Below are positions 10,214-62,680 of a stretch of DNA of 64,000 nt, in pieces. Origin of the DNA: Alphaproteobacteria bacterium (GTDB lineage: Bacteria > Pseudomonadota > Alphaproteobacteria > GCA-2731375); NCBI GenBank assembly GCA_016776605.1, contig JADHTB010000010.1, positions 8,727 to 72,726 of the forward strand, in the 5' to 3' direction. A program made the position numbers and the translations under genes. Below the pieces are notes generated by a model. The model made no database searches and was not told the origin of the DNA. It was given only the letters and a program-made list of their open reading frames with translations. Within the stretch, counting starts at the first letter, position 1. Every line of letters starts with the position of its first letter.

Positions 10214-10326
10214 TGATTATTCGGTTAGAGCAATTCCGAATTAATGAGAATCGCGGAGCGATTCTAAGTGATTGGAAAAATTGCTCTAATTCTAAAGATC
10301 TGAGCATTTTCATTCTGAAAATGCTC
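10214..10326 (+). repeat. Copy A of the ~110-bp AT-rich intergenic repeat (MITE-like) with CTAGAGCAATT-type termini and two internal palindromes
   Basis: Near-identical to 18124..18232 and to the reverse complement of 23497..23604. Internal palindromes GAATCGCGGAGCGATTC and GAGCATTTTCATTCTGAAAATGCTC. Confidence 0.85.
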
Positions 10327-10341
10327 TAGAGCAATTATTAT

Positions 10342-11073
10342 TTAGTTGCGGTTGCCGAACAGCCGCAGCAGCATCAGGAACAGGTTGATAAAGTCCAGAT
10401 ACAGCCGCAAGGCGCCCATGATCGCTTTTTTGCTCATGGTCGCTTCGCTATCGGCATGAGAATACATTTCCTTGATCTTCTGGGTGTCATAGGCAGTCAG
10501 ACCCGTGAAAACCAGGACGCCGATGACCGAGATGACCCACTGCATCATGGCCGAGGCCAGGAAGATGTTGACCACCGATGCCACGATGATGCCGATCAGG
10601 CCCATCATCAGGAAGCTGCCCCAGGCGGAAAGATCCTTTTTAGTGGTATAGCCGTACAGGCTCATGGCGCCGAATGTCACGGACGTGATCATGAAGACCC
10701 GAACAATGGAGGTCTGGGTATAGACCACGAAGATCGAAGCCAGCGAAGCCCCCATCAGCGCGGCAAAAATCCAGAACGTGGCCTGGGCTGCGCCGGTGCT
10801 CATCTTTTCAATGCGCGCGCCAAGGAACATCACCAGTCCCAGCGGCGCCAGCATCACCACCCACATCAATGGAGTGCCGAAGATCACCTGCATCAGGGCC
10901 GGCGTATTGGCCACCGCATAAGCGACAATGCCGCTGAGCAGCAGGCCCGAACCCATATAATTGTAGACCCGCAGCATATAGGCGCGCAGACCTTCATCAA
11001 TCCGCGTATCGGCTGCCGCACCGGCCTGACCTCTGGTCTGACCGAAAACCGAACTTCTAGGATCCATTGCCAT
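10342..11073 (-). CDS. Bax inhibitor-1/YccA family membrane protein
   Basis: Seven hydrophobic segments and similarity to the BI-1/YccA family, including the typical Lys-rich charged C-terminus. Confidence 0.8.
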   Translation of the reverse strand: MAMDPRSSVFGQTRGQAGAAADTRIDEGLRAYMLRVYNYMGSGLLLSGIVAYAVANTPALMQVIFGTPLMWVVMLAPLGLVMFLGARIEKMSTGAAQATFWIFAALMGASLASIFVVYTQTSIVRVFMITSVTFGAMSLYGYTTKKDLSAWGSFLMMGLIGIIVASVVNIFLASAMMQWVISVIGVLVFTGLTAYDTQKIKEMYSHADSEATMSKKAIMGALRLYLDFINLFLMLLRLFGNRN

Positions 11074-11243: not shown

Positions 11244-13787
11244 CTATTCGTTGCGCAACAGCGGCGCGGGCTTTTGGCTCATGGCCAGCCAGGTCCCCAA
11301 CATCCCCGCGCCCACGGTCACAATCAGACAGATCAGCGTGGTCACAAGGACGCCGTGCGGCAGCCAATACCAGGGCATACCCATGATTTGCGCCACCACC
11401 GCATAGCCAGCGGCCGTGCCGACCCCGGCGGCCAGAATGGCGGTAATCAGCCCTAATAGAGAATATTCCAGGAAATAGGTCAGCAACACGCGCCTTCTGG
11501 TTGCACCCAGAACCTTTAACACCACGGCATCATAGACCCGGCGCCGATGATTGGCGGCAACCGCGCCCGCCAGCACCAGGACGCCCGCCGCCAGGGCCAC
11601 GGTGGCGGTGGCGCGCACGGCAATACCGATGTTGCGCAGGATGCCATTGACCGCCTCCAGGGCCTCGCGAATTCGGATCGCGGTAATGTTGGGATAGGTA
11701 TCCGTCACCGCCATCTGTAAAGGTAGTTCGGCGGCAGGGGTGGTTTTCGCCGTCGCGATGAAGGTTTGCGGGGCCCCTTCCAGGGCGCCGGGGGCAAATA
11801 CAATGACGAAATTGATGCCCATGGTGGACCAATCGATGCGGCGCAGATTGGCGATTTCAGCCTCGATCTCGCGGCCCAGCACATTCAGGGTCAGACGGTC
11901 GCCGACACCAATGTTCATACCCTCGGCAATGGCCGCATCGAAAGAAATCAGCGGCGGCCCCGCATAGTCCGCCGGCCACCATTTTCCCGCTACGATCTCG
12001 GTGTGCGGCGGCGGCAGGGCGGTATAGGTCAGGCCACGGTCGCCATGCGCCGCCCAGGCGGCGTGCGGCGCCACCTTGAACTTGGCCACATCAATGTCAT
12101 TAATTTTGACGATACGGCCGCGCAGGGCCGGGACGTGCTGGATCTCCTCCACGCCGTCGATGTCTTTGGCCAAGGCTTCAAATGGCGCCACCTGGTCGGG
12201 CAGGATATCGATAAAGAAGAATGCCGGCGCTTTTTCGGGCAGCCGTTCGTTGACCTGCAAATTCATATTGCCTTCAACCGCGATCACCGCCACCAATACG
12301 GACAGGCCCAGGCCGAAGGACTGCACCACGGGGATGGTCGCCGCGCCCGGCCGGTACAGATTGGTCAGGGCCAGCCGCAGCACCGCCCCCCAACGCCTGG
12401 ATCGCGGCCGAGGCAGCCGGCGCGCCAGATCGACGATGCCCAGTCCAGCGCCCAGGAAGGCCACCATGGCCGCCGCCGCTCCACAAACGAACCAAATGGC
12501 GAAACGTTGCTCCTCCGCCGTCAGGATGGCCAGGCCGGCCAGCGCGGCGAAGCTTAGCGCGGCCAGCCCCATATAACGCCACGACGGCCGGGCCAGCATG
12601 GGTGCCGCCAGATCGCGAAACAAGGCGCCCGCCGGCACGCTCTGGGCCCGGGCCAGCGGCCAGATGGCAAAGGCCAATGCCGTGAGAAAACCATAGGTGG
12701 CGGCCAGCAACAGCGGCAGCGGATGCAAATTGAACTGAATTTGAAACGGCAGCAAATCAGCCAGCAAACCCGACAGCAACGGCGGCACGCCGGCACCGAC
12801 CACCAATCCCGCGACGACGCCCAGCCCGGTCAGGGTCATCACCAACAGCAAATAAACCTGAAAGATCAACCGCGACGGCGCGCCCAGGCATTTCAGAGTA
12901 GCGATGGTCCCGGTCTTGCCTTCAAGAAAGCTGCGCACCGCATTACCAATACCCAAGCCCCCCACCAACAGCGCGGTCAGACCCACCAGGGTCAGAAACA
13001 GGCGCATACGGTCGATGAACCGTTTTAGGCCAGGCGCACCATTGCGCACATCACGGATGCGCCAGCCGGCTTCGGGAAAGCGGTTCTTGAGGTCTTCGAT
13101 CCAGGCCACCACATCGCTATTCGCCGGCAGGGCGATGCGATAGCGGTACTTCACCTGGCTGCCTTCGCGGATCAGCGCCGTTGCCTCCAGGCTGGCCTTG
13201 GCCACCATCAGGCGCGGGCCAAGGACAAAGGCATCGGCACCCCGGTCCGGCTCCCGCTGAATGGCGGCGGCAATACGGTAGGTCGTCTCGCCGACCCGGA
13301 CCTGATCGCCGGCCTTTAAGTTCAGGCGCTGTAAAAGCACCGGCTCCGCCACCGCGCCGGGCAGGCCGTCTTTAACCGCGAATGCGCTGGCCAGGTCCTG
13401 GCCCTGATCCAATTGCATGCGGCCATACAAGGGATAGCGCCCGTCCACGCCCTTTAACTCGATCAGGCCCCGCTGACGCCCGTCCATGCGGCGCGCCATG
13501 GCGCGCATTTCGGTGACCTGACTGACTTGGCCGGCGGCCCGCAAATAGGCCAATTGCGCCGGCTTGGCGGGCTGCTGGGACAGGCGCAGTTCCACATCGC
13601 CGCCCAATAGCAGACGGCCGTCCCGATGCAGCCCGTCAACCAGGGCATCCGACAGGGAACCAACCCCGGCAATGGCGCTGACGCCAAGGGCGACGCACAG
13701 CAAAAGGATACGAAAACCACGCAGACCGCCGCGCAATTCCCGCCGGGCAATGGTAAACGCAAGGCGGCGGGGGAACATGGTTTTCAA
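11244..13787 (-). CDS. ybbP: ABC transporter permease with duplicated FtsX domains (YbbP-like)
   Basis: 847 aa with two FtsX-type four-transmembrane modules and large periplasmic loops. The adjacent ATPase gene and a divergent tesA reproduce the tesA-ybbA-ybbP arrangement of E. coli. Confidence 0.75.
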   Translation of the reverse strand: MKTMFPRRLAFTIARRELRGGLRGFRILLLCVALGVSAIAGVGSLSDALVDGLHRDGRLLLGGDVELRLSQQPAKPAQLAYLRAAGQVSQVTEMRAMARRMDGRQRGLIELKGVDGRYPLYGRMQLDQGQDLASAFAVKDGLPGAVAEPVLLQRLNLKAGDQVRVGETTYRIAAAIQREPDRGADAFVLGPRLMVAKASLEATALIREGSQVKYRYRIALPANSDVVAWIEDLKNRFPEAGWRIRDVRNGAPGLKRFIDRMRLFLTLVGLTALLVGGLGIGNAVRSFLEGKTGTIATLKCLGAPSRLIFQVYLLLVMTLTGLGVVAGLVVGAGVPPLLSGLLADLLPFQIQFNLHPLPLLLAATYGFLTALAFAIWPLARAQSVPAGALFRDLAAPMLARPSWRYMGLAALSFAALAGLAILTAEEQRFAIWFVCGAAAAMVAFLGAGLGIVDLARRLPRPRSRRWGAVLRLALTNLYRPGAATIPVVQSFGLGLSVLVAVIAVEGNMNLQVNERLPEKAPAFFFIDILPDQVAPFEALAKDIDGVEEIQHVPALRGRIVKINDIDVAKFKVAPHAAWAAHGDRGLTYTALPPPHTEIVAGKWWPADYAGPPLISFDAAIAEGMNIGVGDRLTLNVLGREIEAEIANLRRIDWSTMGINFVIVFAPGALEGAPQTFIATAKTTPAAELPLQMAVTDTYPNITAIRIREALEAVNGILRNIGIAVRATATVALAAGVLVLAGAVAANHRRRVYDAVVLKVLGATRRRVLLTYFLEYSLLGLITAILAAGVGTAAGYAVVAQIMGMPWYWLPHGVLVTTLICLIVTVGAGMLGTWLAMSQKPAPLLRNE

Positions 13788-14485
13788 TTCGCCGCCATGG
13801 ACGGCGCTTCATCCAGGCGGCCATCGCGCATGTGAACAATGCGGTCACAGCGTTCCGCCAGGGCGGGGTCGTGGGTGATCAGGATCAGCGTACTATTGGC
13901 GGCCCGATGCAGGCGGAACATCAATTCGATGATCGCCCCGCCCGTGGCGCCATCCAGATTGCCCGTGGGCTCGTCCGCCAACAGCAGACTGGGGCGGTGG
14001 ACCACGGCCCGGGCCAGGGCGACCCGCTGTTGTTCGCCACCCGATAGTTGCGATGGATAGTGACTTAAACGATGCTGCAGGCCAACTTCGGTCAAGGCCG
14101 CCGCCGCGCCGGCGAAGGCATCCCGTACGCCGGCGAATTCGAGGGGCATGGCGACGTTTTCCAGGGCCGACATGGTCGGGATCAGATGAAAGGATTGGAA
14201 AACGATGCCCACATGGTCACGGCGGAACAGGGCCAGGGCGTCTTCGCCCAAATCCTGCAAGGCCTGGCCCGCAACCTGGACCCGGCCGCGGCTGGGGCGT
14301 TCCAGGCCGGCCATCACCGCCATCAAGGTGGATTTGCCGGAGCCCGAGGGGCCAACCAGACCGACCGTTTCACCCCTGGGGACAGACAGGTCAACGCCGC
14401 GTAAGATGTCCACCGGCCCGGCCTCGCTGGGCAGGGTCAAATGCACATCGTTCAGGTCGATCATGATATCAGCAGAATTTGTCAT
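13784..14485 (-). CDS. ybbA: ABC transporter ATP-binding protein (YbbA/LolD-like)
   Basis: Walker A GPSGSGKST, signature LSGGEQQRVALARA, Walker B LLLADEPTGNLD. The track ORF extends to 14506; an internal Met start is chosen to leave room for a divergent promoter region. Confidence 0.8.
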   Translation of the reverse strand: MTNSADIMIDLNDVHLTLPSEAGPVDILRGVDLSVPRGETVGLVGPSGSGKSTLMAVMAGLERPSRGRVQVAGQALQDLGEDALALFRRDHVGIVFQSFHLIPTMSALENVAMPLEFAGVRDAFAGAAAALTEVGLQHRLSHYPSQLSGGEQQRVALARAVVHRPSLLLADEPTGNLDGATGGAIIELMFRLHRAANSTLILITHDPALAERCDRIVHMRDGRLDEAPSMAAN

Positions 14486-17819: not shown

Positions 17820-18113
17820 ATGAGCGATCTACTACAAGAAAACTGCCGCCGCGAAGCACTGGCTGGCCTATCCGGCTGGCAACTGCAAGACGGGCGAGAT
17901 GCCATACAGAAATCCTTTACATTCAAGGATTTCAACGCCGCCTTCGCCTTCATGACCCGCATCGCCCTGAAGGCCGAGGCTATGAACCATCACCCGGAAT
18001 GGAACAACGTTTACAACCGGGTGGATATTGTCCTGACCAGCCACGACGTGGCCGGCCTAAGCGAACGGGATATCGTCCTGGCCACCTTCATTGATGCCGC
18101 CGCGTCGGATTGA
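17820..18113 (+). CDS. phhB: 4a-hydroxytetrahydrobiopterin (pterin-4a-carbinolamine) dehydratase
   Basis: [20 protein letters not shown] signature; 97 aa. Lies 4 nt after the Sel1 gene. Confidence 0.85.
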
Positions 18114-18123
18114 GCCATCCGGA

Positions 18124-18232
18124 TCTAGAGCAATTCCGGATTAATGAGAATCGCGAAGCGATCCTAAGTGATTGGAAAAACTGCTCTAATTCTAAAGATC
18201 TGAGCATTTTCAGAATGAAAATGCTCTAGAGC
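18124..18232 (+). repeat. Copy B of the ~110-bp intergenic repeat family
   Basis: About 90% identical to copy A over its full length. Confidence 0.85.
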
Positions 18233-18235
18233 GTT

Positions 18236-18408
18236 TCCGGGCTATTCTGAACCATTTGACCGCTCACCAAGGCCCCGTGGGTAGGCGCGGTTTGCAGGTC
18301 GATGTGGTGCATCGTCCAAGAACCGCAACGCAGCCACGGGGCCTTGGTGAGCGGCCTTCGGTGGCACCCCTAAGCCATCAAATGGACCAGAATAGCCCGG
18401 AAATGCTC
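18236..18408. repeat. Long imperfect hairpin element (about 170 nt) inserted next to repeat copy B
   Basis: Outer arms CCGGGCTATTCTG / CAGAATAGCCCGG and inner arms GCTCACCAAGGCCCCGTGG / CCACGGGGCCTTGGTGAGC. Its core CGATGTGGTGCATCGTCCAAGA is shared with the element at 34005..34160. It is flanked by a near-duplicate of GAAAATGCTCTAGAGC, which looks like a target duplication. Confidence 0.6.
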
Positions 18409-19169
18409 TAGCGGGGCGCCATGCGAATGGCGCCGTCCAGGCGGATGGTTTCGCCATTCAGCATGACGTTTTCCACAATCTGCCGGGCCAGTTGGGCATA
18501 TTCGCTGGGCACACCCAGTTTCTTGGGGAACGGCACACTGGCCGCCAGCGACGCCCGCACGTCATCGGGCAGGGTGCCCAACAGGGGTGTCTCGAAAATT
18601 CCCGGCGCGATGGTGCAAACGCGGATGCCCTTGTCCGCCAGATCGCGGGCGACCGGCAGGGTCATGCCGACGATGCCGCCTTTCGAGGCGGAATAGGCGG
18701 CCTGGCCGACCTGACCATCGAAGGCGGCGACCGAGGCGGTGTTGATGACCACGCCGCGTTCGCCATGCTCCAACGGCTCTAAATCCACCATATCGGTGCT
18801 GGCAAGACGGATGCAATTAAAGGTGCCTATCAGGTTGATCTTGATGATCCGTTCGAACTGATCGAGGGGATGGGCGGCACCGCGGGAGGTTGTCTTGACC
18901 GCTACGCCGGTACCGGCACAGTTGACCAGAATGCGGGCCGTGCCAAAGGCTTCCCTGGTCTCGCCCAGGGCGGCAACCACACTGTCTTCCGAGGTGACAT
19001 CGCATTTGCAGAAGATACCGCCCACGGCCTTTGCCACGGCCATGCCTTTATCTTCCTGAATGTCCCAGATCGCTACTTGTGCGCCGGCGCCGGCCAGTTC
19101 CCTGGCCGTACCCTCGCCCAGGCCCGAGGCGCCGCCGGTAATGATCGCTACCTGTCCGTCGATTTGCAT
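18408..19169 (-). CDS. SDR-family oxidoreductase, 3-hydroxyacyl-CoA dehydrogenase type-2-like
   Basis: TGGASGLG cofactor-binding motif and YSASK active-site motif; 253 aa. Confidence 0.8.
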
Positions 19170-22724: not shown

Positions 22725-23489
22725 ATGAATGAACTTGCGGGCAAGGCGGCCATTGTCACCGGGGCCAGCCGGGGTATTGGCGCGGCCACGGCGCGGGAGC
22801 TTGCCGGACGCGGCGTCGCGGTTTTGCTGGCCGCGCGCAGTTTGGCCGAGATAGAAGCCGTGGCGGCGGAAATTCGCGCCGCCGGCGGCAGGGCGGAGGC
22901 AATGGCCTGCGATGTCAGCCAATATGGCGACGTTGCCGCCGCCGTGGCGCGGTGCCAGGAGGCCTTTGGCCGGTTGGATATCCTGATCAACAATGCCGGC
23001 GTTATCGAACCGATCACCCGGCTGGGGGACTCCGACCCCGAACAATGGGGCCGCGCCGCCGACATTAACTACAAGGGCGTCTATCATGGCCTGCGCGCGG
23101 CAATCCCGGTGATGGCGGCGCAAGGCGCGGGCGTCATCATCAATCTCAGCTCTGGCGCGGCCACCGGCGCCATGGAGGGGTGGAGCCACTATTGCTCCGC
23201 CAAGGCCGCCGCCCTGTCATTGACCCGTTGCGCCCATGTGGAATACGGCGGCAGCGGCATCCGGGTCATCGGCCTTGTCCCTGGAACCGTGGCCACCGAA
23301 ATGCAGGTTCTGATTAAGGCCTCGGGCATCAACCCGGTCAGTCAGTTGGACCCTTCGGTGCACATACCCGCGGAATGGCCCGCCCGTGCTATCGCCTGGC
23401 TGTGCAGCGAAGACGCGGCGGAATTCTCCGGCAGCGACGTCTCGCTCAGAGATGATGGCATTCGAAGGCGCGCCGGGCTTACCGCGTAA
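22725..23489 (+). CDS. SDR-family oxidoreductase
   Basis: TGASRGIG and NNAG motifs, and a YxxxK (YCSAK) catalytic motif. Confidence 0.8.
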   Translation: MNELAGKAAIVTGASRGIGAATARELAGRGVAVLLAARSLAEIEAVAAEIRAAGGRAEAMACDVSQYGDVAAAVARCQEAFGRLDILINNAGVIEPITRLGDSDPEQWGRAADINYKGVYHGLRAAIPVMAAQGAGVIINLSSGAATGAMEGWSHYCSAKAAALSLTRCAHVEYGGSGIRVIGLVPGTVATEMQVLIKASGINPVSQLDPSVHIPAEWPARAIAWLCSEDAAEFSGSDVSLRDDGIRRRAGLTA

Positions 23490-23496
23490 TCGCTTC

Positions 23497-23604
23497 GCTA
23501 GAGCATTTTCATTCTGAAAATGCTCAGATCTTTAGAATTAGAGCAATTTTTCCAATCACTTAGAATCGCTTCGCGATTCTCTGTAATTCGGAATGGCTCT
23601 AGCC
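23497..23604 (-). repeat. Copy C of the ~110-bp intergenic repeat family, inverted orientation
   Basis: Its reverse complement aligns over its full length with copies A and B. Confidence 0.85.
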
Positions 23605-23609
23605 GTGCT

Positions 23610-24515
23610 TTATATATTGGAGGTGGAAGGTTCGAAACCGCTGGCGCGCGCGTCGCGGGCGGTGGCGGCAAGCTCGCTGGCCGGATCGCCGGCAACGCGG
23701 GTATGCCGCATGACCCGCGTTTCGCTGTAGTCATAGGGCCGCGCGGCATGCAGAACACAGCGATTGTCCCAAATTATCAGGTCGCCCGGCTGCCAGCCGT
23801 GAGTGTAGGTACGCGGCGGCTGACAGGCAAAATTCAGCAGGTCATCCAATAGGGCTTTCGCCTCCCCGTCGTCCAGCCCTGGAATTTGGTAGGCGTGACG
23901 GCCAATGAAAAGCGACTTGCGGCCGGTGACCGGGTGCGTCTTCACCAGCGGACGCAACGGCGCGCCCTTGTTGTGATAACCGTAAGCGGTGCCGCTCTCG
24001 ACAATATGTCCGATCTCGGCCTGGGATTGGTACAGCGAATGATGGGCGGAAAGCCCCTCGATGCGTTCTTTTTGGTCATTATCCAGGGCATCGTAGGCGG
24101 CGCGCATATCCGCCCACGCCGTCTCGCCCCCTGCCGAGGGTACGACCAGCGCGGCTAGCATGGATGCCTTGGCCGCCAGCGGCATGTACGAGCTGTCCGT
24201 ATGCCAGCCTTCGTTCCCGCGCAAAGCCTGATAGCGATGCTCCTCCGGCTGCAAAACGCTGCCATCGGGTTTTTGGTTGCTGATCGCAACGGCCTTGGCT
24301 GCGGGGTCTCCGCGCAAAAGTTCGATCTCGCCAAAGCGCATCGCGAATGCCACCTGCGCCTCGTCGGTCAGATTTTGCCCTGGAAAAATCAGCACGGCGT
24401 ATTCGTGAAAAGCATCCTCCACCCGCTGCCAGGCAGGTTGATCCAGATGGGCCAGGTCGATGTCGGTGATCGTGGCGCCGAATGTGGCATCAAGAGGCGT
24501 GATCGTTGGCGCCAT
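23610..24515 (-). CDS. TauD/TfdA-family Fe(II)/2-oxoglutarate-dependent dioxygenase
   Basis: WHTD(S) iron-binding motif and the C-terminal R..H motif of the TauD family. Chosen start is the ATG at 24513-24515, with AGGAG 7 nt upstream. Confidence 0.75.
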   Translation of the reverse strand: MAPTITPLDATFGATITDIDLAHLDQPAWQRVEDAFHEYAVLIFPGQNLTDEAQVAFAMRFGEIELLRGDPAAKAVAISNQKPDGSVLQPEEHRYQALRGNEGWHTDSSYMPLAAKASMLAALVVPSAGGETAWADMRAAYDALDNDQKERIEGLSAHHSLYQSQAEIGHIVESGTAYGYHNKGAPLRPLVKTHPVTGRKSLFIGRHAYQIPGLDDGEAKALLDDLLNFACQPPRTYTHGWQPGDLIIWDNRCVLHAARPYDYSETRVMRHTRVAGDPASELAATARDARASGFEPSTSNI

Positions 24516-24700
24516 GGGATACTCCTGCTTTGCGGATTGCGCCGCGGCAGCGTCCATTCAGACCATACTGCCGCGTTCAGAGGGGCAGTATGGCCAAGGA
24601 AGGGCAACGAAGGCAAGCCCGCGGAAGCCCCCGACCCTGCAACGGTCGGAGCTAGGTGCGCGGTCGACGGGTGCGGCCGCGCACCAACCCTATGCCAACC

Positions 24701-27509: not shown

Positions 27510-27620
27510 CGAGAGCGCATTCGAAGAAAATGCGCTCGGACTCTTAAAAATAGAACAATTGAACCAATCACTTTAAGTCGCGAAAGCGACTTCGATGAAT
27601 TGAACGTTGCTCTAAGTTTG
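27510..27620 (-). repeat. Diverged copy (about 60% identity) of the intergenic repeat family
   Basis: Same two-palindrome architecture as copies A-C (GAGCGCATTCGAAGAAAATGCGCTC and AAGTCGCGAAAGCGACTT), collinear with copy C. Confidence 0.55.
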
Positions 27621-28397: not shown

Positions 28398-28434
28398 GCG
28401 CGACGCCAATTTTTAAACTATTTTCGAGATCGGG

Positions 28435-33889: not shown

Positions 33890-34004
33890 GATCTGATCCA
33901 GGATACGGGGTGTAAACACGGGACACATAAAATCAGGCCGGAAAAAACACCGCAGACCAGCCTGACCGATGCAATAGCAATAAATTGCTACCGATAACAG
34001 GTAA

Positions 34005-34160
34005 TACCAACCGACGCTGATAGGGACCTACTGAGACGCCTTGGGCCAGTATTCGGGTCGGAGCGCGCCGACGCGATGTGGTGTGCATCGTCAAGACTTC
34101 ACTCCTACCCGAGGGCACGCGAAGGTGATCACAGTAGGTCCCTATCAGCGCCGGTTGGTA
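34005..34160. repeat. Hairpin element bounded by a 29-nt perfect inverted repeat
   Basis: TACCAACCGACGCTGATAGGGACCTACTG (34005-34033) pairs with CAGTAGGTCCCTATCAGCGCCGGTTGGTA (34131-34159). Its internal core GATGTGGTGTGCATCGTCAAGA matches the core of the 18236..18408 element. Confidence 0.6.
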
Positions 34161-34232
34161 TAAGATCAAGGTTCGAGACGGGAAATAACAGACGGATACC
34201 CGATCCTAGAACGCGTTCGAAGAAGCCACGCT

Positions 34233-35948
34233 CTAGGGACCGGAGCCGACCGTGTTGTCCGTGTCGTCCGTGTTGTCGGTCTTAGGCAGCAATTGCGCCC
34301 GCAGGAACTCGGCATTCAATTGAATGTTGCGGCGCACCTGTCCAATAGGCCCCAAGGCGCCCAACGCCTGACCATCCACTATGATTTCGATTGCCCCGGC
34401 ATTGCCGGTCATCAGCACCAAATCGTCGCGGTTCGGGGCGTGATAACTATCACCGGCCCGCAGCATGCGGGTCAGAAGTAATTCATTATTCGCGCCCTGG
34501 ATCTGGACCCAGGATTCGGCGCGCGCGCGCAATTCCACCCGGGAATTGCGGTTCGAGGCGCCATAGACCTGTGGAGGATAGCTCAGGGCACCAGACGCCG
34601 CGGCCTGGGATGCCGGGGATGCCTGCTGGCCCACGGCGCCGTCGGAAGCACCTTCGCTTGCCGCTTCGGGCAAAGCACGGGCCGGCGCCGATGGTGCGGC
34701 GGGCGGCGGCGGCGGGTCGATAGCCGCCTGGACCGATGGCGGGACCGACGGCTGGACTGGGGCGGCCTTTACATCACCGCCCTCACCCAATGACGCGGCG
34801 GGTTGGGCTGCCGTAGATCGGGCTGCCGTGGATTGCGGTACCGCAGATTGGGGCACGACAACTTGCGGCGCCACGGGCTGCGCCTGCGCGGCGTCTTCCA
34901 AGATCACGGGGATCACGGGCGCGGTGCGAACCTCGACCGCCGGCTTAGCGGTGCTGACCATGGCATTTGGCGAAACCGGTGAGGTTGAAGCATCAGCCGC
35001 CGCCAAATTCGCGGCTGCCGGCATATCCCCGATGCTGACGCCGGCGTTCGCCTTGACCGTCGCGGCAGGCGTCTTGGCGGCTTGTTCGCCTTCACCAGAC
35101 CCTGACGTCACCGTTGGCGCGGCCTGGCCCACGGCCTCCGGATTGGCGACTGTAGCTGCCAGGTTTGCGACGGCTCCAACATTCGGTGTTGCCGCCGCCG
35201 CATCGTTATTGGCCACGGCATCGTTATCAGCCACGGCATCGTTATCAGCCACGGCATTGCTGTTAACCGCATTACTATCAACAGCTATCTGCTCAGCAGC
35301 GGCCTGGCGCGCGGGCTCGGGTGCGGGAACGGACGGCGCAACGGCCACATTGGCTGTGTCTGCCTTAGGGGCAGTGTCCGCGGTATCCGTCGCCGCCTGA
35401 TAGGGTGTAAAGCGTTCCGGCGGTTCAGCCACCACTTCAATTGGCAAAAGCCCCTGCCGCTCCAGGAAAATCCAACCACCGTAGACCGCACCCGCCAACA
35501 GCAATGAGACCAGCGCCAACCGCAAGCCCGGGCGTCGGGCCTCGTCCAGCGGTTCCGGTATAACGATACGGCGTTCTACCGGAACAAGGGTCGCCTCGCG
35601 CTTGAACTGGCGGATAACCTCATCGCCATCAAGTCCAAGAAATTCACTGTACGTGCGGAGGAAGCCGATAGCATAGGTCGGCCCTGGCAAACCATCAGTG
35701 CGGCCCTCTTCCAACGCCAACAAATGCGCCTGTTGGATACGCAGCTCGCTTGAAATTTCCGCCAGGGAAAGCTGCCGCCGTTGCCTCTCGGCCCGCAAGT
35801 TGGTGCCTACGCCGCTGTAAACCTCCACGTCACCCGATTCCACGATCTGTTGCAAGTGCAGGCCACGCCCATTCCCGCGCCGCCGGCTATCCTTGCCGCC
35901 CTGTGGTTCCTTCCCAGGCAATTCATCCATAATATTTGGATCAGTCAT
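34233..35948 (-). CDS. rodZ: Cytoskeleton protein RodZ (HTH-XRE domain, single transmembrane segment, long low-complexity periplasmic linker, DUF4115)
   Basis: N-terminal HTH (LRAERQRRQLSLAEISSELRIQQAHLLALEEG), a transmembrane segment, an Ala/Pro/Val-rich linker with tandem NDAVAD repeats, and a C-terminal DUF4115-like domain. Confidence 0.8.
   Translation of the reverse strand: MTDPNIMDELPGKEPQGGKDSRRRGNGRGLHLQQIVESGDVEVYSGVGTNLRAERQRRQLSLAEISSELRIQQAHLLALEEGRTDGLPGPTYAIGFLRTYSEFLGLDGDEVIRQFKREATLVPVERRIVIPEPLDEARRPGLRLALVSLLLAGAVYGGWIFLERQGLLPIEVVAEPPERFTPYQAATDTADTAPKADTANVAVAPSVPAPEPARQAAAEQIAVDSNAVNSNAVADNDAVADNDAVANNDAAAATPNVGAVANLAATVANPEAVGQAAPTVTSGSGEGEQAAKTPAATVKANAGVSIGDMPAAANLAAADASTSPVSPNAMVSTAKPAVEVRTAPVIPVILEDAAQAQPVAPQVVVPQSAVPQSTAARSTAAQPAASLGEGGDVKAAPVQPSVPPSVQAAIDPPPPPAAPSAPARALPEAASEGASDGAVGQQASPASQAAASGALSYPPQVYGASNRNSRVELRARAESWVQIQGANNELLLTRMLRAGDSYHAPNRDDLVLMTGNAGAIEIIVDGQALGALGPIGQVRRNIQLNAEFLRAQLLPKTDNTDDTDNTVGSGP
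35194..35265. repeat. Four imperfect 18-bp tandem repeats inside rodZ (GCCACGGCATCGTTATCA)
   Basis: Direct repeats visible in the DNA; they encode AVADND-type repeats in the RodZ linker. Confidence 0.8.
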
Positions 35949-36095
35949 GCATTCTTTCAGATCAAGCTTTCCTGGCGCGCCACATGCGCCGCATCCCACG
36001 GCCCGCACATCGTAGAGTCCTACCGTCGCAGTCCCCTGTGGATAACTTCACAATAAGTTCTAACAGTTAAAAAAAACTCAAGCAATCATCATAGT

Positions 36096-40103: not shown

Positions 40104-40177
40104 CACCGCCCCCTCCATCCCTTGCACTGACTATCGCCGTCGGATAGTACAATAAGACAATGCGGAAGGCACGGAAC

Positions 40178-40918
40178 ATGAGCCAGGCAGCAAGCATCGA
40201 CCCGGTTGAAATTGACCGCTTCGCACGGATGGCGGCGCAATGGTGGGACGCCGATGGACCCATGGCGCCGTTGCATCGCCTTAACCCCACTCGTTTGCAA
40301 TACAGCCGCGCGCGCCTATGCGGCCATTTCAATTTGGACGCTGGCGATCTTCGGCCCCTGGCCGGCCTGCGGTTGTTGGATGTGGGCTGTGGCGGCGGCC
40401 TTTTATCCGAGCCATTCGCCCGCATGGGGGCTTCGGTCGTAGGCATTGATGCCGGGGTCGAGAATATTGCCGCCGCCGACGCGCATGCGCAGGCAATGGG
40501 ACTCACGGTGGACTACCGGGCCATGGCCGCGGAAGATTTAGCCGCCTCGGGCGTACAATTCGATGCCGTCGTCAGCATGGAGGTGATCGAACATGTGGCC
40601 GATGTAGCCGGCTTTATCGCGGCCCTTGTCGATCTAACACGTCCAGGCGGCGCCTTGTTGTTGGCGACGTTGAACCGTACGCCGCAGTCCTTTTTTTCCG
40701 CCATTCTGGGCGCCGAATACGTGCTGCGCTGGCTGCCCGTGGGCACGCACGACTGGCAACGCTTTCGCAAGCCCGCGGAACTGGGCCGGTATCTACGCCA
40801 GGCCGGCGCGGAACTGCGGGACGTCACCGGCATGCGCTATTTACCTCGTCAGGGGGATTGGCAACTTTCGCGTAATACCGGCGTGAATTATCTGGCCTAT
40901 GCCGTTCGTCCGGCCTAG
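40178..40918 (+). CDS. ubiG: Bifunctional 3-demethylubiquinol 3-O-methyltransferase / 2-polyprenyl-6-hydroxyphenol methylase
   Basis: SAM-binding motif LLDVGCGGGLLSE and overall UbiG similarity; about 246 aa. Confidence 0.9.
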   Translation: MSQAASIDPVEIDRFARMAAQWWDADGPMAPLHRLNPTRLQYSRARLCGHFNLDAGDLRPLAGLRLLDVGCGGGLLSEPFARMGASVVGIDAGVENIAAADAHAQAMGLTVDYRAMAAEDLAASGVQFDAVVSMEVIEHVADVAGFIAALVDLTRPGGALLLATLNRTPQSFFSAILGAEYVLRWLPVGTHDWQRFRKPAELGRYLRQAGAELRDVTGMRYLPRQGDWQLSRNTGVNYLAYAVRPA

Positions 40919-40972
40919 AGCATTTTCATTCTGAAAATGCTCAGATCTATAGAATTAGAGAAATTTCTCTAA
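40915..40972 (-). repeat. Partial copy D (one palindrome arm) of the intergenic repeat family
   Basis: CTAGAGCATTTTCATTCTGAAAATGCTCAGATCTATAGAATTAGAG matches the first half of copy C. Confidence 0.7.
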
Positions 40973-40991
40973 GCCCCGCCGTGTTCCGCCA

Positions 40992-41543: not shown

Positions 41544-41649
41544 GGGAGGCTCCTGATAATATTCCAGATAATGTGAGCATTCTAGAACATCCCGGAACCG
41601 CTCTAGAGGCCGCCGTCGCGGGGACAGCCATGACGGACAGAGAAGCCGC

Positions 41650-42762
41650 TCAGGCCGTGGCCGCGATCACGGTGTCGGCAGTGTCGCCGGCACGGTCCGT
41701 GGCTGCCGCGGGCTGGGCCCAGACCGCGATGGGGCCGCTGGTCGGCAGGGCGCGATCGTAGCTGTATTCCCAGTTCAATGGATCCGAAAACAGTTTCCGC
41801 AAAAGCTGATTATTGCTGCTGTGGCCGGTACATTGACCCGCGAAATGCGCCAACATCGGCCCGCCGGCAAGGTAAAAATCACCGACGCAGTCCAATACCT
41901 TGTGGCGGACGAATTCGTCGTCATAGCGCAGACCGCCTTCGTTCATGATTTCGTCGTCCCGGCCAACCACCACGACATTGTCCAACGAACCGCCTTGGCC
42001 CAAACCAAGATCCATTAAGCGGTTAACCTCATGCTCGAAACCAAACGTACGGGCACGGCAAATATCTCGTTTGAAACCGCCGTTATGCAGATCGTAAAAG
42101 CCGGATTTTTCCACAATCGCGGGACTGTCGAAATCAATCTCCAGCGAAACCGAGAACCCATCCGAGGGCACCAATGCGGCCCGCCGTTTGCCGTCCTCGA
42201 TCTCTACCCGGCGCAGAACGCGGATCCAACGGCGGCGCGCCTGCTGCGGCGCCAGACCTGCACATTCGATCAAAAACACGAATGGCGCCGAAGAGCCATC
42301 CATGATGGGCACTTCCGGGCCATCCAATTCAACCCGGACATTATCGATGCCGCACCCGGCCAGCGCCGCCATCAGATGTTCAACAGTGCCCACCTTCACC
42401 CCGGCGTCATTTTGCACCGTGGTTGACATGACCGTGTCGCTGACCGTATCCCAGCCTGCCCGGACGTCGGCGGCACCCGGCGCGGCATCCGCACCAGTAT
42501 CCCCGCCAATATCCCCGGGAGCATCTTTAGCTATCCCTAAGGCAGCTGCACGAATATCGGTGCGGTGAAAGACGATACCCGTATCAGCCGGCGCCGGACG
42601 CAGACACATGGCGACCTTAATGCCGCTGTGCAGGCCCACGCCTGAACAGTTGATCGCATTCTTCAGCGTATGCTGCTGCCTGAGCGTATGCTGCTTTGGG
42701 TCCACGTCTTCAATCCGCTTCAAACTTAACGACCTATTCAAATTTAACGTCAAACTTAACAA
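41650..42762 (-). CDS. lpxC: UDP-3-O-acyl-N-acetylglucosamine deacetylase with a low-complexity insertion and a C-terminal extension
   Basis: GVGLHSG, GTVEHL and ARTFGF LpxC motifs in the correct order. There is an extra Gly/Asp/Ala-rich insert of about 20 aa after HRTDI and a C-terminal tail of about 25 aa. The start is uncertain and probably lies downstream of 42762. Confidence 0.85.
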   Translation of the reverse strand: MLSLTLNLNRSLSLKRIEDVDPKQHTLRQQHTLKNAINCSGVGLHSGIKVAMCLRPAPADTGIVFHRTDIRAAALGIAKDAPGDIGGDTGADAAPGAADVRAGWDTVSDTVMSTTVQNDAGVKVGTVEHLMAALAGCGIDNVRVELDGPEVPIMDGSSAPFVFLIECAGLAPQQARRRWIRVLRRVEIEDGKRRAALVPSDGFSVSLEIDFDSPAIVEKSGFYDLHNGGFKRDICRARTFGFEHEVNRLMDLGLGQGGSLDNVVVVGRDDEIMNEGGLRYDDEFVRHKVLDCVGDFYLAGGPMLAHFAGQCTGHSSNNQLLRKLFSDPLNWEYSYDRALPTSGPIAVWAQPAAATDRAGDTADTVIAATA

Positions 42763-42764
42763 CT

Positions 42765-42854
42765 TGTCCGAACGTTTGCACTTGTCCGAATGTTTGCACT
42801 TCTCTGAATGTTTGCACTTCTCTGAATGTTTGCACTTCTCTGAACGTTTTCACT
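42765..42854. repeat. Five 18-bp direct tandem repeats (TGTCCGAATGTTTGCACT variants) in the ftsZ-lpxC intergenic region, immediately 5' of lpxC
   Basis: Units at 42765, 42783, 42801, 42819 and 42837. They are preceded by 2 x CAAACTTAAC. The apparent coding potential on the plus strand is a repeat artefact. Confidence 0.85.
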
Positions 42855-61935: not shown

Positions 61936-62242
61936 TTTATGGGATATCATGCCTTAATATGCCCGTCAATTATTAAACAAATAATTAATTGGCGTTCTCA
62001 AAGTTAAAATTAGAGCAATGAAGTGTTTCGCCAAATGCCGCGAGCGATCAAATCCGGCTTGATCTATAAAATTACCAGACGATTCAGAGCAACAATCAGG
62101 ATGGTCTATAGGAACAATGAGGCGAAACCTTGTTCCTTTTATGTTCTTATTGTTATTTTTGCTCCGCACGGCGTGGTGCCAAAGCTCTTTCGAGATTGGC
62201 TGAACCACCCGCGCTCCGCATCGGCACATTATGAAGAAGGGG

Positions 62243-62680
<438 letters not shown>

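Follow-up and report, generated by a model that had tools for sequence, protein, structure and literature searches.

The DNA analysed here, called the window in the following, is a stretch of 64,000 nucleotides of contig JADHTB010000010.1 (assembly GCA_016776605.1) from an uncultured marine alphaproteobacterium. Dispersed between its genes are copies of a short AT-rich repeat with inverted ends, which the original prediction had described as near-identical elements of about 110 bp belonging to a miniature inverted-repeat transposable element (MITE) or REP-like family. A profile built from the three full copies and searched over the window matched at 10225-10328 (+), 18125-18228 (+) and 23499-23603 (−), each with an E value of ~1e-35. 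The same profile recovered a half copy, previously placed at 40915-40972, as a match at 40916-40975 (E = 7e-14) and a diverged copy at 27520-27614 (E = 3e-5); beyond these five copies, nothing significant was found in the 64 kb. Pairwise identities among the full copies were 93-94% with a repeat finder (93% for 10226-10332 against 18126-18232; 94% for 18125-18229 against the reverse complement of 23498-23602). Reading of the sequence together with a family-wide junction profile refined the boundaries to run from TA to TA (Table 1), so that the full copies, all of subfamily A, consist of a 99-bp core with a TA on each side. This core contains no open reading frame (ORF) and has no coding capacity. 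The GC content of the element is 0.32-0.42; its AT-richness was thus described correctly, and the surroundings are at 0.60-0.63 in the window rather than at the 0.64 given before.

All copies are intergenic, as had been claimed, and Pfam identified the flanking ORFs as real genes. Copy 1 lies in the 3′ untranslated region (UTR) of a Bax1-I gene (10342-11073, minus), between its stop codon and a strong intrinsic terminator (10208-10179, minus). The sequence TAGAGCAATTAT adjoining this copy is possibly the relic of a solo terminus, left by an earlier insertion at a regenerated CTAG. Copy 2 starts 12 nt past the stop codon of a pterin-4a-carbinolamine dehydratase gene (17820-18113), and copy 3 occupies the spacer between the convergent genes of an SDR protein (22725-23489) and TauD (23610-24557). 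The diverged copy sits in the divergent promoter region of clpB and a MOSC gene. Its existence was predicted correctly; it is not, as the earlier figure of ~60% identity suggested, a decayed copy and belongs to a subfamily of its own (C2), in which it is ~88% identical to its relatives in other contigs. The half copy is internally deleted. Its arm 1 has shrunk to a palindrome of 12 bp, GAGAAATTTCTC, consistent with a deletion of the type that long palindromes are expected to undergo, and the stop codon TAG of a methyltransferase gene (40160-40918) is made of the TA (40916-40917) and the adjacent G (40918) of this copy. The two shorter palindromes of the same flavour that had been reported also exist, share the form TA-GAAC...GCTC-TA and are listed in Table 1; the one between lpxC and the DUF2889 gene may be either a relic or a minimal unit.

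Table 1 Copies of the repeat and further features of the window, with bit scores of the covariance model
Feature	Position	Strand	Bits	Remarks
Full copy 1, subfamily A	10226-10328	+	118	
TAGAGCAATTAT	10327-10338	+		Directly 3′ of copy 1; repeats the left-end sequence
Full copy 2, subfamily A	18126-18228	+	112	Right TA common to MITE2
MITE2	18227-18410			184 bp; 39-nt terminal inverted repeat, TA-GAGCGTTTCCGGGCTATTCTG...
Full copy 3 (c23), subfamily A	23499-23601	-	111	
Subfamily C2 copy (c27)	27511-27614	-	78	Right TA decayed to TC
MITE5	34004-34161			60-nt inverted arms TACCAACCGGCGCTGATAGGGACC...; 3-bp TTA duplication
Single-arm relic	34207-34235			TA-GAACGCGTTCGAAGAAGCCACGCTC-TA; 25-bp arm; right TA in the stop codon TAG of rodZ (34233-36008, minus)
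Internally deleted copy	40916-40971	-	52	Arm 2, linker and arm 1 collapsed to GAGAAATTTCTC
Short unit	41583-41605			TA-GAACATCCCGGAACCGCTC-TA; between lpxC and a DUF2889 gene; family termini
RNase P RNA	62241-62671	-		Rfam

The repeats are not confined to the window and form a family of uncultured marine Alphaproteobacteria. A degenerate core pattern occurred at seven loci in four alphaproteobacterial marine metagenome-assembled genomes (MAGs) among 185,579 species genomes, an exact-pattern scan in which Caulobacter and Brucella gave no match, and a slightly looser pattern retrieved at least 120 marine metagenome contigs. In the collected loci (designated by L numbers), a profile search yielded 157 non-overlapping matches, 113 of them full length, at 92-94 distinct insertion sites whose gene contexts are unrelated and always different. 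Contig ends fall inside copies in many cases, as is expected of a multicopy repeat. A BLASTN search with copy 2 and MITE2 against 72,556 plasmids returned a spurious Vibrio match only. Four subfamilies can be distinguished: A (~26 copies, including the three full copies of the window), B (34 copies), C (30 copies) and C2 (four copies). As the copies were gathered with a fixed pattern, this diversity is an underestimate and the seemingly invariant central block is partly an artefact; hence the block AAGTGATTGG..TGNTCT, being the search pattern used for collecting the copies, is not read as a binding site. The alternative that the repeats are a local artefact, either a duplicated gene fragment or chance matches in low-complexity AT-rich DNA, has AT-richness and nothing else in its favour and can be dismissed in view of the E values of 1e-35 in the window, of more than 150 matches in unrelated contigs, of the sharp boundaries and of the lack of an ORF.

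The copies share the layout Y-TA-GAGCAATT...AATTGCTC-linker-GAGCAT...ATGCTC-TA-R, with GAGCAWTT conserved at both ends to at least 90%. The imperfect terminal inverted repeats and two internal palindromes of the original prediction are thereby borne out, with GAGCAWTT and AWKTGCTC as termini; in subfamily B the inverted ends match at 13 of 15 nt (GAGCAgTTCCGAtTT / GAGCAtTTCCGAaTT). Two hairpin arms fold separately and are joined by a linker of 13-15 nt. Arm 1, a three-tier hairpin with the inner stem GAATCGCG/CGCGATTC, arises from pairing between the left terminus and an inverted internal repeat of it, and arm 2 is formed likewise by the right terminus and its internal counterpart. The pairing is maintained by compensatory change. 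In the outer stem of arm 1 and in arm 2, to which the pair counts were limited, 96.4% of the cells are paired and nine of the 17 pairs have changed on both sides, a value that was not reached by any of 500 shuffles. A one-column offset of the inner hairpin in subfamily C led RNAalifold to a wrong consensus on the raw alignment, and realignment with a covariance model was no cure. Between the subfamilies the inner hairpin likewise varies in a compensatory manner (GAATCGCG, GAATCACG and GAGTCGC), with a GC-rich extension in part of subfamily B. In copies otherwise read in the same orientation, the loop of arm 2 (3 nt) occurs in two opposite versions, TTC and GAA, one at 10311-10313 and 40929-40931 and the other at 18211-18213 and 23512-23514; L061 presents a further case. 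Also the single arm at the rodZ stop codon appears inverted between the window and L160. Both observations suggest an inversion of hairpins, which might proceed e.g. by template switching.

The ends of the insertions are defined by the junctions of 92 copies. The left TA is preceded by C in 62 and by T in 21 copies and is followed by GAGCAATT, and on the right side ATGCTC and TA are followed by G in 75 and by A in ten copies, which gives the junction consensus Y-TA-GAGCAWTT ... ATGCTC-TA-R. Conservation falls to the background one base outside each TA. From these base counts the target is YTAR, mostly CTAG, with the TA present on both sides of the insertion. A 4-bp duplication is excluded, since a T on the left side conflicts with a C on the right side in at least 16 copies.

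Comparison of filled and empty sites led to the same result. The relatives for this comparison were reached via the clpB cluster; a 552-aa Sel1-repeat protein had been a poor route, as it evolves rapidly, with just 64% identity to its closest relatives. At 28398-28434 the window has an empty site, cagcTAGcccga, in which the stop codon TAG of a DUF4167 gene lies within gCTAGc. In L160, the clpB of which is 97.5% identical to that of the window, a full copy is present at the TA of this stop codon (cagcTA-GAGAAATT...ATGCTC-TAGcccga). The pair reveals a recent insertion which duplicated the TA at a CTAG and rebuilt the stop codon from the TA and the first G of the element. Two further pairs agree: a paralogous one inside another repeat (gtcTAgtg in L117 versus ttcTA-element-TAgtg in L083) and one at a stop codon, filled at its TA in L107 and unoccupied in L080 (TAA) and L124 (TAG). 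Of the copies in the window, c23 is absent from its site in L141 and L143, and c27 is absent in L141, L143 and L162 and present with an intact TA in L160; the clpB genes of relatives lacking these two copies are 89.5% and 85.7% identical to that of the window. Insertions are therefore polymorphic between genomes of 86-97.5% identity. At the rodZ stop codon the occupation ranges from an empty site in L141 through a full-length copy in L162 and a degenerate one in L160 to the 25-bp single arm of the window, a series which identifies the shorter palindromes as relics of full copies. The search for target-site duplications that had been proposed was thus positive, with a duplicated TA and a preference for CTAG or YTAR.

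The proximity to stop codons noticed in the original prediction is real and has its basis in the target: in many cases the TA that is duplicated belongs to a TAG or TAA. ORFs of at least 80 codons that end no more than 60 nt away flank 75 of the 94 copies on one side or both, and 28 of them on both. The distance is zero, i.e. the junction TA plus G is itself the stop codon, at 48 of 188 junctions, compared with one to four junctions at any other distance. The stop codon of an ORF of at least 100 codons is supplied by 37 of the 94 copies (~39%). Such an ORF is terminated by 40 of the 120 TAGs at junctions; among all TAGs of these loci the share is 9.7% (P = 1e-12). In the window, Pfam-confirmed genes with element-made stop codons are those of the methyltransferase (40916-40918) and of RodZ as well as, via MITE2, an SDR gene (18408-19169). 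With 28 sites where 223 would be expected, CTAG shows an approximately eight-fold depletion in the window, and about 12 of the 28 lie at these elements. TA is also under-represented; stop codons are for this reason among the few tolerated targets. Since the element starts with a G, the stop codon is regenerated as TAG.

The position behind genes and the hairpins could also be taken for the signature of a structured RNA (a small RNA gene, a 3′-UTR stabiliser or a terminator) that is repeated because many genes need its function. The predicted folds are more stable than those of shuffled sequences on both strands (z = −5 to −7), the arms covary, and most copies, lying directly behind genes, must be co-transcribed into 3′ UTRs, in case of copy 1 ahead of the terminator. 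We nevertheless consider an RNA function extremely unlikely. The orientation relative to the upstream gene is unbiased (24 versus 16, P = 0.75), which argues against a strand-specific role, as such a function would impose a bias. Neither arm is followed by a U-tract, and a consensus scan called no promoter or terminator on the elements. Rfam at gathering thresholds reported only RNase P in the window, and a search of 18050-18480 at E values of up to 5 revealed nothing relevant. Moreover, the presence of copies at orthologous sites is polymorphic between near-identical genomes, and the contexts differ in every genome. An asymmetry between G·T and A·C mismatches (255 versus 96) was considered as a sign of selection at the RNA level and rejected, because a few subfamily-wide substitutions and misaligned columns dominate the counts.

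Dispersal, inverted ends, TA duplication and insertion polymorphism uphold the reading as a MITE. The repeats are probably ~99-bp non-autonomous DNA transposons that are moved in trans by a TA-duplicating DDE transposase. Such an enzyme would cut at the GAGC termini and insert the element at a TA, which is duplicated, with CTAG as the preferred and YTAR as a looser target. With CTAG being rare, and with insertions into genes and promoters purged by selection, the surviving copies would be found mostly at TAG or TAA stop codons and in the short spacers behind them, where an element beginning with G would always restore TAG as TA plus G and leave the protein unchanged. Each insertion would create two new CTAG sites and thereby may give rise to tandem or nested arrays and to clusters with other TA-flanked MITEs and insertion sequences (ISs). 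Later decay by hairpin-mediated deletion would leave relics with a single arm or a collapsed arm.

Two IS types were reached via the clpB cluster, starting from a 3-Mb contig of a close relative, and are candidate sources of the transposase. The first is an IS630-family element of 1.18 kb (L141 6476-7654) with HTH and DDE_3 domains, located between two other TA-flanked MITEs and having more than 8000 homologues at identities of at least 76%. In every copy examined (L141, L144-L149) it is bordered as C-TA-GTGTCCYGAT...-TA-G. Its transposase ORF has no internal stop codon and ends, in the same way as the genes next to our repeats, in a TAG formed by the duplicated TA and the G of the CTAG target. 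The second is an IS427-group element of the IS5 family (L150-L159, L148 1-717) of 845 bp, with a DUF4096 ORF and a DDE_Tnp_1 ORF, which is always found as C-TA-GGGCCTGTGGAC...-TA-G (tip GGGCCTGT). As both ISs always have C-TA and TA-G borders, two TA-duplicating, CTAG-preferring DDE families are at hand in this lineage and community. The IS630-family element shares the target and the duplication with the repeats but has the termini GTGTCCYGAT instead of GAGCAWTT and no significant end similarity: its tip aligns to GAGCAATTCCGA only with an offset of 3 nt and with a score no better than that of shuffles. Its termini match a different MITE, here named MITE3 (GTGGTCCGATTC). The tip of the repeat, GAGCA(T/A)(G/T)T, resembles rather that of the IS427-group element, with G(A/G)GC in common; further in there is no significant similarity. 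A variant of the latter IS (L148; right end GAGCATGTGGAC, tip GAGCATGT) shares 8 identical nucleotides with the right end of subfamily C. The tip sequence and an alphaproteobacterial precedent, IS711, lead us to favour an IS427-group enzyme of the IS711 type as the putative transposase, with an IS630-family enzyme as the alternative. IS711 duplicates the TA in YTAR and favours Bru-RS repeats as insertion sites (PMC2266754, PMC3163539).

Several observations weigh against the transposon interpretation. No autonomous element with GAGCAWTT termini, and hence no full-length parent IS with matching inverted repeats as had been envisaged, was present among the 162 loci. A parent search by inverted TAGRRC...GYYCTA pairs at distances of 130-3000 bp, with at least 14 of 20 positions matching, was negative, split profile matches disclosed no parent IS, and the recurrent ORF families beside the copies were housekeeping genes only, with no transposase in or beside any copy. 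In local alignments with the ends of both candidate ISs the element scored no better than shuffles (z < 2.5). The pairing of the arms is kept by compensatory changes, which a transposase that simply binds terminal inverted repeats would not obviously require. The target is an invariant 2 bp, so that duplication of a TA and insertion, beside a TA, of an element carrying one TA are formally inseparable by sequence. Finally, in L125 (235-400) a copy of subfamily B lies inside one of subfamily C at a site other than TA (CAC/TTGGG) and without a recognisable duplication, possibly an exception to the TA rule or a chimera of the assembly. The one copy with a split match, of subfamily B (L012, 1961-2433), is broken by an unrelated MITE of ~360 bp that sits in the inner hairpin and is accompanied by a 9-bp duplication (CACGAAGTG).

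Some of these points would be accounted for by a REP/REPIN- or IS200/IS605-like mechanism, in which an HUH enzyme (Y1), e.g. a RAYT, would recognise each arm as a single-stranded DNA hairpin, cleave at the CTAG at its foot and insert without duplication. In this case one would understand that the arms are preserved as hairpins, that single arms occur alone (34207-34235 and 41583-41605) and that no parent IS was found. Arms and linkers furthermore appear modular, MITE3 in L117 having other arms and a similar linker (TTCTTAAGAGTC), and the repetition of TAG at both junctions permits several registers for the inserted segment. Yet the same terminus stands inverted at both ends with a TA on both sides, the junction structure of the two co-resident DDE IS families. 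Conservation is lower in the bases outside the TA (C 67%, G 82%) than within the element, which fits a target preference and not a cleavage motif carried by the element. The termini are symmetric and lack a one-sided tetranucleotide of the GTAG type, and no Y1 or RAYT gene occurred among the recurrent ORFs beside copies, a search confined to these ORFs and not extended to whole genomes. Hence we regard such a mechanism as very unlikely, and the label REP-like given earlier received no positive support.

Besides the mobility by a DDE transposase, the retention of the copies deserves consideration. The CcrM recognition site GANTC occurs 186 times in 94 copies compared with 36 times in shuffles, an approximately five-fold enrichment, while it is about five-fold depleted in the whole window (47 versus 223 expected). 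Three positions are fixed and vary in the central base (GAATC, GAGTC, GATTC, GACTC). Of the 94 copies, 75 have a site at alignment column 27 and 55 have one at columns 52/53; in arm 1 these two positions face each other in the inner stem. Genomic depletion combined with intergenic enrichment of GANTC is a known signature of CcrM-bearing Alphaproteobacteria (PMC3973325). The element might thus be retained because it delivers CcrM sites, or the site of a host protein, to intergenic DNA, which would be compatible with transposition, and the same role was once suggested for the CIR repeats according to the pertinent part of a review (PMC2229807). We judge such a benefit to be unlikely, in spite of the enrichment at fixed positions within a GANTC-depleted window: two of the three positions are opposite sides of one stem and so conserved together for structural reasons, the site in the linker is absent from subfamily A, one or no GANTC is present in 25 of the 94 copies, and the family sample was chosen by a fixed sequence pattern. 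Judged by their sequence, GANTC-rich elements in a GANTC-depleted genome are nonetheless candidate spreaders of CcrM methylation sites.

Other mobile elements occur in the vicinity of the repeats. MITE2, which shares a TA with copy 2 and is equal to it at 16 of 20 terminal nucleotides, represents a family of 184-262 bp with the terminal inverted repeat TA-GAGCG(T/G)TTCCGGG... and a GC-rich core hairpin. The SDR gene 18408-19169 (minus) obtains its stop codon TAG from the right TA of this element and the C preceding it; in L014 the orthologous gene is terminated by TAA, without an insertion at this place. In L141 (7655-7918) a MITE2 copy directly follows the IS630 transposase gene; a match of 24/28 nt between MITE2 and the coding region of this IS (BLAST E value 0.04) is a weak lead only. 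MITE5 is absent at its window site in L160, L141 and L162, and the motif of its arms borders copies of the repeat family in L025, L089 and L090. The empty site of copy 3 in L141 (13658-13676, CTAGCGCGGTTCCGGGCTAG) has a 14-bp piece similar to the MITE2 terminus between two TAs, which could be a footprint or a solo terminus. In L160 (~13690-13835) a different insertion begins at the TA of copy 3. Its first ORF starts with MNVHKNAGLAPRGRE and may resemble a transposase of the IS481 family; if so, the CTAG behind tauD would be a hot spot for multiple elements. Upstream from the predicted start of lpxC (ORF 41650-42762, minus), five tandem 18-bp units (ACTTGTCCGAAYGTTTGC) extend over 42762-42851, within the kilobase of lowest GC content and strongest skew in the window.

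A repeat of the same design is present on 290 plasmids of Rhizobium, Bradyrhizobium and Asticcacaulis (L138-L140). It is probably of the CIR, Bru-RS or RIME type. Its structure is Y-TA-GAGC-arm 1-GCTC, linker, GAGC-arm 2-GCTC-TA-G, with ~103 bp and a GANTC in the loop of an arm, and one case abuts the stop codon of an annotated gene. In contrast to our family, the GANTC lies in arm 2 instead of arm 1, and neither nhmmer nor the covariance model detected any interior similarity between the two. The elements CIR1-4 of Caulobacter and Brucella (Chen and Shapiro 2003, as cited in Delihas 2008, PMC2229807) are described, in the part of that review concerned with them, as ~110-bp, strictly intergenic repeats without ORFs, having two independently folding arms and a linker, GANTC at or near the tip of an arm, TA termini and stop codons in all frames. 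Size, intergenic location, lack of ORFs, two arms with a linker, GANTC in an arm, terminal TA and stop codons in all frames all recur in the present family, as compared by description. The same part of the review lists the target duplication of CIR with a question mark and leaves the mode of mobility open, whereas the present family has a TA duplication and was mobile recently. With their four subfamilies the repeats thus constitute a new family, but not a categorically new type of element, as they belong to the known CIR-like MITEs of Alphaproteobacteria with two arms and TA flanks; new are the TA duplication at CTAG, the recent mobility, the mechanistic account of the association with stop codons and two candidate transposase families.

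The Brucella repeats Bru-RS1 and Bru-RS2 are palindromic and of 103-105 bp, and IS711, an IS5-family element, has 842 bp and two overlapping ORFs (PMC2266754, PMC3163539). By description it is similar to the marine IS427-group IS, which has 845 bp, two ORFs and a TA duplication as well; in contrast to the Bru-RS/IS711 pair, the present family has yielded neither an IS inserted in a copy nor one that matches it. RUP of Streptococcus pneumoniae, a MITE of IS630-Spn1, and the Correia/NEMIS elements of Neisseria are also TA-flanked, intergenic repeats of ~100-155 bp that are co-transcribed with their neighbours, according to the sections of the review dealing with them (PMC2229807). They differ from our two-arm family in forming a single stem between the two ends, and no GANTC association is reported for them, nor do these sections (PMC2229807) describe an overlap with stop codons. 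RUP has a known parent IS, other than the present family, for which none was found in the 162 loci. Tentatively, and with more doubt than confidence, the present family, the rhizobial repeat, CIR and Bru-RS could be joined in one superfamily of TA-GAGC...GCTC-TA two-arm MITEs that is mobilised by IS427-group enzymes, uses stop codons as a safe harbour and seeds GANTC sites and 3′-UTR hairpins behind hundreds of genes. If true, this would answer how CIR elements move and provide a mechanistic reason for the association of Bru-RS with IS711.

For the marine Alphaproteobacteria the repeats have practical consequences: with ~40% of the copies supplying the stop codon of a neighbouring gene and contigs breaking inside copies, they affect the annotation of gene ends and the contiguity of MAGs. 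The filled and empty alleles among genomes of 86-97.5% identity can serve directly as markers for strains and attest to the activity of the family. The clean junctions together with the empty sites are, to our knowledge, the first such evidence for a CIR-type two-arm repeat. With them the mobility of CIR-type repeats becomes a testable proposal, namely that they are moved by a DDE transposase which duplicates TA and comes from either the IS427 group or the IS630 family.

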